A stretch of 64,000 bases of DNA, from the NCBI GenBank assembly GCA_942493285.1, contig OW818691.1:7126484-7190483 (forward strand). The letters run 5' to 3'. Within the stretch, counting starts at the first letter, position 1. Each line of letters begins with the position of its first letter. Positions 12,568 to 14,053 of this stretch are shown one piece after another. This DNA comes from an uncultured Myxococcia bacterium (GTDB taxonomy: Bacteria > Myxococcota_A > UBA9042 > PHBI01). A program made the position numbers and the translations under genes. Below the pieces are notes generated by a model, which made no database searches, was not told the origin of the DNA, and saw only the letters and a program-made list of their open reading frames with translations.

Positions 12568-13233
12568 ATGGGCAAGCGCGGAAATCGAATGCAGGTCAAG
12601 CTAGAAGACTTGAACCTGATTCCGATCATGGGGGTGATGATCATCCTCATCCCCATGGTCCTCTTCAGCTACAGCTTCGACCAGCTCAAGGTGCAGCAGG
12701 TTGCAACTCCCCGTGTGGGTGCGTCGGCGCCCGCGGCCGGGGCTGCCAAACAGGATGAGAAGGTTCCGCTGAAGCTCGCGGTGCACATCGGGAACGATGG
12801 CTTCAAGATCAAGGCAAACGAGGTCTTTGCCGACCTGTCGTTTCCCGAGATACCCAAGCAGAAGTTCCAGGTCGTGGTGGTGCCAGGTCAGGCCGCTCAG
12901 GCCGTGACGGACTACGATTACCCGCGGCTCTACTCGGTGCTCCGGGCCCTGAAGGACCAGGAACGGTTCAAGGAAGAGGACTCGATCGACGTCAGCGCCG
13001 AGATGAACATCCCGTGGTCGGTCGTTGCGGCGACCATCGATGCGGCCCGGGTGAAGCTCACGACGGCGGATTTCCGGCCGAACGCGAACTACGAGCAGGC
13101 GCTGGAGCTCTATCGGCGGGACAAACCAGTGATGGAGCCGGGGAAGCTGAAGACGGCGGACGGGGTCGCCATCCCGACGACCGTTCCCATGTTTCCCAAG
13201 GTCGTCTTCACGGTGGCCGAGGTTGTCAATTGA
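12568..13233 (+). CDS. TolR/ExbD/MotB-family protein, paralog 1 (AglQ/AglS-like)
   Basis: 221 aa. Single N-terminal TM (…LEDLNLIPIMGVMIILIPMVLF) with the N-x-x-P motif of ExbD/TolR. By eye the canonical TM Asp position is Gly (IMGVM). Periplasmic C-domain. Confidence 0.7.
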   Translation: MGKRGNRMQVKLEDLNLIPIMGVMIILIPMVLFSYSFDQLKVQQVATPRVGASAPAAGAAKQDEKVPLKLAVHIGNDGFKIKANEVFADLSFPEIPKQKFQVVVVPGQAAQAVTDYDYPRLYSVLRALKDQERFKEEDSIDVSAEMNIPWSVVAATIDAARVKLTTADFRPNANYEQALELYRRDKPVMEPGKLKTADGVAIPTTVPMFPKVVFTVAEVVN

Positions 13234-13420
13234 TGCGTTCGCGGCTTTCCGACTCGCAGAGTGGAAAGCCGGGACGTGGCCGAGCCGTTGCTGCCGATCG
13301 TCGTGCGCATCAGCGCGAGCAGTTGTGCAGCAGACACGAGCTACGAGAAAAGCGAGCATCCATGCCCGGGGGCTGTAAGGTCGCTCCGCAGACGGCGTCC
13401 ATTGGGCACCGAGGACACGA

Positions 13421-14053
13421 ATGATGGCCGAGAACACGGAACCAGAAGAGGCGCCGCCGACGTCGAGCCCGAAGAAGGCGAAGCGACACGACGACAGTGT
13501 CAGCCTCAACATCACATCGTTGATGGACGCCATCTCCATCATCCTCTGCTACCTCCTCGTGTCCATCAACTCGGACCCGTGGAGCATCAAGCAGAACCAG
13601 TATCTCTCGCTCGCCCAGTCGACCGTCGATACAGAGCCGCGGGAGTCGATGGCCGTGGTCATCAACCGGCAAGAGATCCTCGTCGACAACACGAAGGTCC
13701 TACCCGTCGACTGCACGACCTCCGCTGCGAAGGGTGCGCGTCAGTGCCGGACCGCCCCGGACTTCGAGTTCGATGACAACAGCTACAGCATCGACAAGGT
13801 CTACAAAGAGGACGGCTCGGAAGAGAGCTTCAAGGTCACAGCCCTTCTGTCGGTGCTTCAGGACAAGCTCGTCGGTGCACGAGAGATGCACAAAGCTCGC
13901 GGCAACGAAGGCGAGTTTCGCGGGATGGCCACGGTCATCTGCGACAAGAACATCCCCTACCGGATGATCGCCGAGGTCATCAACACGATGGGCCAGGCTG
14001 GAATCGAGAACATGCGTTTCGCGATCATGCAGGGTGAGCGCTGGGTTCCCTAG
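13421..14053 (+). CDS. TolR/ExbD/MotB-family protein, paralog 2 (AglQ/AglS-like)
   Basis: 210 aa. TM NITSLMDAISIILCYLLVSI retains the conserved proton-relay Asp (LMDAIS). ExbD-like periplasmic domain. Confidence 0.7.
   Translation: MMAENTEPEEAPPTSSPKKAKRHDDSVSLNITSLMDAISIILCYLLVSINSDPWSIKQNQYLSLAQSTVDTEPRESMAVVINRQEILVDNTKVLPVDCTTSAAKGARQCRTAPDFEFDDNSYSIDKVYKEDGSEESFKVTALLSVLQDKLVGAREMHKARGNEGEFRGMATVICDKNIPYRMIAEVINTMGQAGIENMRFAIMQGERWVP

Follow-up and report, generated by a model that had tools for sequence, protein, structure and literature searches.

The stretch of DNA analysed here, which we call the window, comprises 64,000 nucleotides from an uncultured Myxococcia bacterium (contig OW818691.1, positions 7,126,484 to 7,190,483; all positions below count from its first letter). 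Nine genes follow one another on its plus strand without interruption: a gene for an unknown protein, genes resembling gltC, gltD, gltE and gltF, a single AglR/ExbB-like gene, two genes for TolR/ExbD-like proteins that we call D1 and D2, and a gene for a GltG-like protein with a TonB-C domain (Table 1). An original prediction, made from the sequence and a list of its open reading frames (ORFs), had recognised two TolR/ExbD paralogs in tandem and proposed that the first has Gly in place of the canonical transmembrane (TM) Asp, which the second keeps. Both ORFs indeed lie on the plus strand at the coordinates it gave, and profile alignment bears out the residues: Gly22 of D1 falls on Asp25 of ExbD, and D36 of D2 falls on that same Asp. 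One detail has to be corrected. The Asp that was thought to precede this Gly by three residues lies eight residues upstream of it (D14, two before N16).

The register can be followed in several alignments. Against E. coli ExbD (N12...D17 I N19 V T P22 F I D25), residues D14, N16, P19 and G22 of D1 match D17, N19, P22 and D25. When the D2-family profile is compared with ExbD of Serratia and E. coli (chains 7ajq_F and 6tyi_Y), 'lnitSlmD' falls on 'INVTPFID', which sets D36 on D25, and a profile-profile alignment of the two families places L15-N16-L17-I18-P19-I20-M21-G22 of D1 on L29-N30-I31-T32-S33-L34-M35-D36 of D2. Judged by these alignments, D1 is without the canonical TM Asp (the column of ExbD D25, TolR D23 and MotB D32) in the correct register. 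We considered D14 as a displaced proton site and rejected it: since it is in register with ExbD D17 at the membrane edge, it is the acidic residue that the family normally has at the helix boundary and no relocated proton site.

In other respects D1 has the ExbD/TolR layout, with a short cytoplasmic N-tail, a single TM helix and a periplasmic alpha/beta domain of the TolR/ExbD fold. Each paralog has one predicted TM segment, and only that of D2 (about residues 29-50, with D36 within) holds an acidic residue; the hydrophobic segment of D1 (residues 15-37) follows a positively charged, K/R-rich N-tail and has none inside, the nearest being E13, D14 and D38 at the helix ends. Structure models give D1 and D2 alike a TolR-like periplasmic fold, so that the ExbD-like fold supposed for the first paralog is found in its model, which consists of a TM helix (about 15-37), a low-confidence linker (37-65) and a confident TolR-fold periplasmic domain (66-216). 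D2 has every mark of an ExbD/TolR protein, namely a PF02472 match, the topology, the fold, the TM Asp and the ExbB neighbour, and many members of the D1 class have a precomputed PF02472 match.

D1 is a working gene under purifying selection, with dN/dS of 0.12-0.35 against two close relatives; the values for D2 are similar, at 0.26-0.33. Plausible ribosome-binding sites stand ahead of both genes (GGAAGGAG before the D1 ATG at 12568, GAGGA before the D2 ATG at 13421). The exact D2 protein is present in the public protein collection (P0016); the exact 221-amino-acid D1 has no entry there, and its best match is 93% identical. The D1 start in the annotation of the source genome may differ from ours, for example Met8 at 12589.

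Loss of the Asp is not peculiar to this genome, a point absent from the original prediction, and most of the D1 class has Asn at the proton site. Among 15 homologues of D1 from a collection of 5.8 billion proteins (93% to 31% identity), the column holds G, A or S and never Asp (0/15), and the flanking motif N-L-x-P-I-M-X ... L-I-P is almost invariant; the Asp of D2 is invariant in 16/16 homologues. A scan of one genome per species returned 15 loci, all from metagenome-assembled genomes of Myxococcota or Bradymonadales type. In every one of these D1 has G, A or S and D2 has D, so the Asp-less paralog does recur in orthologous clusters of related genomes. The order of seven genes, from the large tetratricopeptide repeat (TPR) gene to the GltG-like gene, is kept in 10/10 complete loci, and the five loci at contig ends show a matching subset.

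A search of 1.84 billion cluster representatives with the D1-family profile defined the wider class, with 1050 proteins at E <= 1e-3 and 262 at E <= 1e-10. In the best 150 of the 1050, the column of G22 holds Asn 95 times, Ser 22, Ala 14, Gly 11 and Asp 3, with seven fragments; an additional search gave a similar residue picture, plus a small Asp-bearing group. Genomic context was recovered for Asn-type loci (L016-L020 and L023-L045 in our numbering), Asp-type loci (L021, L046), close Gly-type relatives of the window (L049-L052) and a low-GC Asn-type pair (L053). Every sufficiently complete locus, about 40 examined, has ExbB, a D1-class gene, a D2-class gene with its Asp and a GltG/AgmX-like gene, usually with TPR and small genes upstream. 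In fact, the D2-class partner keeps the Asp in each locus examined, and each cluster has one ExbB-like gene. In a rough neighbour-joining tree the Ser, Ala and Gly forms fall in one clade with the window and the Asn forms in a second, larger clade, inside which lie two small Asp groups. No part of the D1 class is better conserved than the TM helix: across 133 diverse members P19 is invariant, and M21, L27, I28 and P29 are conserved at >= 90%. The pair in L053 (positions 6557-9466 of a contig with 39% GC) combines an Asn-type and an Asp-type ExbD with ExbB and a TonB-C protein of AgmX/PglI type, without the upstream TPR genes; it adjoins mreBCD, with two ORFs (446 and 130 amino acids) followed by mreB-mreC-mreD-PBP2-rodA. 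This arrangement implies that the Asp-less class reaches well beyond high-GC Myxococcota. The loss is common to a large and apparently undescribed family whose members are always paired with an Asp-bearing partner; no description of an Asp-less ExbD/TolR/AglS-type paralog turned up in the papers searched.

The single pentamer subunit was inspected for residues that might serve the proton path or make up for the lost Asp. In phmmer alignments to TolQ/ExbB chains, T130 and T166 of the ExbB-like protein correspond to T148 and T181 of E. coli ExbB, which have been highlighted, together with Asp25, as essential in the Ton motor (PMC12905483). Neither threonine varies among 38 orthologues, which suggests a working channel. 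Two residues past the pore threonine stands an Asp, D132 (12253-12255, motif GLLGTIDGMIDAF), which is shared by the closest relatives L049 and L051; the other 35 orthologues examined all have I, V, L, F, Y or S at this position. In the clade of the window D132 may go together with Gly22 of D1, although other Gly-type loci (L007, L008 and L014) are without it. The position six residues past the threonine is acidic in many clusters, but not in all Asp-less ones, and K163 (12346-12348), which takes the place of E. coli ExbB E176 and TolQ E173, is L, I, V, K, A or E in orthologues, so that the family does not retain a Glu which is otherwise conserved. A general compensating acidic residue in the pentamer was therefore rejected: D132 is restricted to a clade, the T+6 position is inconsistent and the E176 equivalent is variable.

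The genes around this motor core make up the gene set described for Group B core complexes (PMC3169522), with gltC, gltD, gltE and gltG homologues, aglR and two TolR-like genes in one cluster. D1 starts 69 base pairs (bp) downstream of the MotA_ExbB gene, an adjacency also seen in all related loci, and no terminator-like site was found on the plus strand between the genes of the cluster, which is consistent with one operon. The spacer between D1 and D2 (13234-13420) measures 187 bp, compared with about 10-110 bp in most orthologues and 164 bp in L049, and shows no promoter-like or terminator-like site on the plus strand.

Table 1. Genes and key codons of the cluster, in window coordinates (TPR, tetratricopeptide repeat; aa, amino acids)
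Feature	Position	Strand	Basis or remark
Unknown protein, 287 aa	2820..3683	+	First gene of the run; stop overlaps start of next gene
GltC-like TPR protein, 858 aa	3680..6256	+	NCBIfam GltC 44.9 bits (cut-off 450); TPR Pfam matches
Large TPR protein in GltD position, 1239 aa, YbgF/CpoB-like repeats	6256..9975	+	TIGR02795 tol_pal_ybgF 131.5 bits in 4 stretches; TPR Pfam matches
GltE-like TPR lipoprotein candidate, 383 aa	9972..11123	+	NCBIfam GltE 84.3 bits (cut-off 225); many TPR matches
Small secreted GltF/CglF-like protein, 97 aa	11191..11484	+	NCBIfam CglF 20 bits (cut-off 90)
AglR/TolQ/ExbB-like pentamer subunit, 212 aa	11860..12498	+	Pfam MotA_ExbB 80.9 bits; sole copy in cluster
T130 codon of ExbB-like protein	12247..12249	+	Pore threonine, equivalent to E. 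coli ExbB T148
D1, TolR/ExbD-like, 221 aa	12568..13233	+	Without TM Asp
Asp14 codon of D1 (GAC)	12607..12609	+	Unambiguous
Gly22 codon of D1 (GGG)	12631..12633	+	ExbD Asp25 position; unambiguous
D2, TolR/ExbD-like, 210 aa	13421..14053	+	With TM Asp D36
Asp36 codon of D2 (GAC)	13526..13528	+	Predicted sole proton-binding residue of the axle; unambiguous
GltG/AgmX-like transducer	14114..15553	+	AgmX/PglI C-terminal domain 97.7 bits (NCBIfam cut-off 40); GltG 131.5 (cut-off 650); Pfam TonB_C 23.8

The first protein of the run matches nothing in Pfam or NCBIfam, and a gene of about 290 amino acids occupies the equivalent position in L049 and L051. The GltC-like protein is 79% identical to its L049 counterpart, and the large TPR gene stands in the same place in all complete orthologous loci. 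The ATG of the GltE-like gene at 9972 overlaps the preceding stop, and its product begins with the signal-peptide-like MSARLAAIVLTTLLVGSAHA. The small CglF-like protein shares 45-74% identity with the gene in the same position in 14/15 GTDB loci, the values being 33-36% in the L007/L008/L014 group, and a small gene of 82-130 amino acids holds this position in L016, L019, L021 and L046. The GltG-like protein has a cytoplasmic N-domain, one TM segment (about 167-185, numbered from the ORF at 14072), a low-complexity periplasmic linker and a TonB-C-like AgmX/PglI tail; its mechanically called ORF starts at TTG 14072, and the L049 orthologue aligns from 14114. In this comparison, which covered the window, none of gltA/B/H/I/J/K was seen inside the cluster, and the large ORFs elsewhere in the window are unrelated.

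The cluster is flanked by Obg upstream and, downstream, by a Uma2-family gene (15696-16694) and a MATE transporter gene (16742-18148, minus strand). Three extra genes follow the GltG-like gene in the relatives L049 (12423-15112) and L051 (12345-15034) and in the Asn-type L019 (12107-14624). They encode a protein of 193 amino acids, one of 420-490 (with a faint BBP2_2 beta-barrel match in L019 only) and a Wza-like Poly_export/SLBB protein of 204-207, and tblastn found none of them in the window (15554-18148 compared). Polysaccharide export may thus be connected with the core complex, and the present genome may have undergone a rearrangement. Elsewhere in the window, the minus strand encodes an 1811-amino-acid protein with FG-GAP, HYR and Dictyostelium-type repeats (36250-41685); a large FG-GAP/beta-propeller protein likewise follows the core cluster in L016 and L017. 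Also on the minus strand (60634-63180) is an unusual fusion of 848 amino acids that joins collagen triple-helix repeats to MtrC/OmcA-like decahaem cytochrome domains (PF22113 at 201.6 bits, an OmcA-like N-domain and several CXXCH families).

How might such a set of proteins work? We read the locus as a 'core complex' of Agl/Glt type: a machine of the TolQRA/ExbBD-TonB kind that spans the envelope and is driven by protons. Its motor would be AglR/ExbB5:D1:D2 with a single proton site, and we give this reading a probability of roughly 60%. A pentamer of the single AglR/ExbB-like subunit would encircle an axle of two helices, one from D1 and one from D2, with D36 of D2 as the only protonatable Asp, facing the conserved threonine ring (T130, T166). 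The share of D1 would be threefold: a helix that is highly conserved yet chemically inert (where it has Gly22, relatives have Asn, Ser or Ala), a linker that is long and flexible, and, in the periplasm, a domain of TolR fold that would pair with that of D2. The GltG-like TonB-C protein would take up the work and hand it on to the TPR proteins of the periplasm and outer membrane (GltC/D/E/F-like). With one site, the motor might cycle with a different, perhaps longer step, by pulling on the GltG-like transducer and resetting in a reciprocating stroke, or with built-in directionality or a gate.

We infer heterodimer formation, the 5:1:1 stoichiometry and the sufficiency of one Asp from co-occurrence, synteny and conservation. 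A D1-D2 heterodimer is favoured because the two are paired strictly 1:1 in a single operon with one pentamer gene, and because the TM helix of D1 is very highly conserved, as expected for a helix packed inside the pore. It is also favoured because AlphaFold modelling of the M. xanthus proteins gave a single robust stoichiometry, AglR5:AglQ:AglS, a heterodimeric axle with GltG bound (PMC11761067). In solved ExbBD and TolQR structures the two Asp are not equivalent, one lying on the Thr ring and the other facing the cytoplasmic cavity (PMC12905483), so a permanently neutral chain could take one of the two positions. A broader claim is more tentative, and we hold it with somewhat less than even confidence: the D1 class may be a widespread natural 'permanently neutral' axle subunit, and Agl/Glt-type core motors may be obligate 5:1:1 assemblies with a single proton-binding Asp.

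Several observations weigh against this heterodimeric one-Asp motor. Changing the Asp to Asn at the proton site inactivates ExbD and MotB, and current rotary models alternate both Asp, so it is not obvious how an axle with one Asp would turn. In M. xanthus the AglQ D28N mutant is paralysed, with gliding and sporulation both affected (PMC3858216). The case for heterodimerisation comes from the co-occurrence of the genes. The overall profile-profile match between D1 and D2 is weak (hhalign probability 11.6%), so that the register hangs on the short N..P...X motif and the D/N/P anchors. D1 scores 24.4 bits against PF02472 (residues 12-161, E = 3.3e-05), just below the gathering score of 25.4; phmmer found no match for D1 or D2 among PDB sequences, and the D1-family profile gave only a chance match there. 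Finally, the ranking behind a figure of '95% Asp-less' is biased, since a profile built on Asp-less sequences yields a sample enriched for Asp-less members.

The main rival supposes that D1 and D2 do not mix. ExbB5:D2(2) would be the active motor, and ExbB5:D1(2) a proton-dead brake, plug, assembly scaffold or anchoring stator that competes, for instance, for pentamers or for GltG. The present data fit a heterodimer and two homodimers alike, and ExbD D25N and MotB D32N, altered in just this way, are inactive and can be dominant-negative. Inactive D-to-N homodimers are also known from AglQ D28N (PMC3858216), and a review notes that in principle a channel could be built from either AglRQ or AglRS, with no stoichiometry established in vivo (PMC9389320). 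We nevertheless judge two separate homodimers unlikely. That the two genes always adjoin 1:1 in an operon with only one ExbB gene suits an obligate partnership better than a competition, the conservation of the D1 TM helix exceeds what a mere plug would need, and the M. xanthus model supported the heterodimer only (PMC11761067).

Weaker still, and in our view improbable, is the idea that D1 has left the pore. Its TM helix would then sit on the exterior of the pentamer, like that of TolA or TonB, or with another partner, and its TolR-like domain would act only as a periplasmic adaptor or peptidoglycan binder. The long disordered linker (residues 37-65), an unusual, class-specific Pro in the TM helix (L27-I28-P29) that canonical ExbD lacks, and the divergence of a class scoring under the Pfam cut-off would all suit such a role. 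Yet D1 retains the ExbD-type N-x-x-P motif in register together with the boundary acidic residue, it has no SHLS-type motif, and the TolA/TonB role is already taken by the GltG-like protein. In addition, the rare class members of L021 and L046 still have Asp at the site within an unchanged gene order, which argues that the D1 class began as a pore subunit. A reading of the missing Asp as artefact or decay, whether through wrong sequencing, a faulty alignment, a start called in the wrong place or a gene turning into a pseudogene, is in effect refuted: the marginal Pfam score and the lack of an entry for the exact D1 sequence, the exact D2 being present, would fit, but D1 is one long ORF with a good ribosome-binding site and a confident fold model (residues 66-216), GGG is two base changes from GAY, and the Asp-less state recurs in dozens of independent assemblies, while dN/dS well below 1 and the conservation led us to reject a pseudogene.

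What sets this locus apart is the Asp-less first TolR-like subunit; its architecture is that of AglRQS with the Glt core, within the ExbBD-TonB/TolQRA family. A large family appears to have exchanged the Asp for Asn, or to have gone on to Ser, Ala or Gly, in just one chain of a paralogous axle pair, and to have kept this state under selection, with the partner intact. The two TolR-like classes of Agl/Glt-type clusters, which the sequence marker N-L-x-P-I-M-[NSAG] ... L-I-P tells apart, are not interchangeable duplicates. The finding bears directly on how 5:2 motors use two proton sites. If both chains share one pentamer, nature has already made the 'one-Asp motor' experiment, and these operons would allow a direct test of whether two proton sites are needed and of what the second chain does. 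If the D1 class is indeed a permanently neutral axle subunit of obligate 5:1:1 motors, the 5:2 architecture would be able to work usefully without the two-Asp alternation that current rotary models assume.

Among known systems, the closest is the AglRQS motor of M. xanthus with its Glt core complex. The core complex (gltC, D, E and G with aglR, Q and S) was described as the form from which both the gliding and the Nfs machinery of Myxococcus arose, its function being unknown in non-gliders (Luciano et al. 2011, PMC3169522). The window and M. xanthus agree in combining one TolQ-like gene with two TolR-like genes that differ from each other. In both, the GltG-type transducer of TonB-C kind carries an AgmX/PglI tail, and TPR proteins resembling GltC, GltD and GltE are accompanied by a small protein of GltF/CglF type; in the window all of these sit in a single cluster, as proposed for the ancestral form. 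The heterodimeric axle proposed here is likewise the arrangement modelled for M. xanthus (PMC11761067). The analogy with AglR, AglQ and AglS drawn in the original prediction therefore stands for the gene set, since the GltC/D/E/F/G-like neighbours identify an Agl/Glt core complex (PMC3169522), and breaks down at the proton site: AglQ and AglS both keep the conserved TM Asp (review PMC9389320), a difference from the first TolR-like subunit of the window that we take from the literature, and D28 of AglQ is essential (PMC3858216). The GltG-, GltE-, GltC- and CglF-like proteins also miss the NCBIfam equivalog cut-offs of the gliding proteins, and only the AgmX/PglI tail passes; with scores so far under the cut-offs they are paralogous or distant relatives rather than orthologues of the gliding proteins.

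With the 5:2 motors ExbB-ExbD-TonB and TolQ-TolR-TolA the window shares the two pore threonines of the pentamer subunit, the canonical Asp (in D2), axle subunits in which an N-tail and a single TM helix precede a domain of TolR fold, a TonB-C-like effector and, in a neighbouring gene, YbgF/CpoB-like TPR repeats. In Ton and Tol, however, the axle is a homodimer with two Asp, whereas the window would have two different chains and one Asp; the periplasmic domains of its pair are larger, with insertions, and Lys stands at the position of E. coli ExbB E176, which is variable in the family. Engineered stator mutants (MotB D32N/D22N, ExbD D25N, AglQ D28N) offer another parallel: Asp-to-Asn is the substitution that mimics a permanently protonated Asp (PMC9389320), and it is at precisely this position that most D1-class members have Asn. 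The mutants are altered in both axle chains and have a dead motor, whereas the D1 class would owe its residue to a natural and ancient change that affects only one of two paralogous chains and that selection has kept. Tandem exbD1-exbD2 Ton clusters, for example in Xanthomonas and Bacteroidota, also combine ExbB, two ExbD paralogs and a TonB-like gene; presumably both of their paralogs keep the Asp, and they differ from the window in being without the GltC/D/E-like TPR set and the AgmX/PglI tail.

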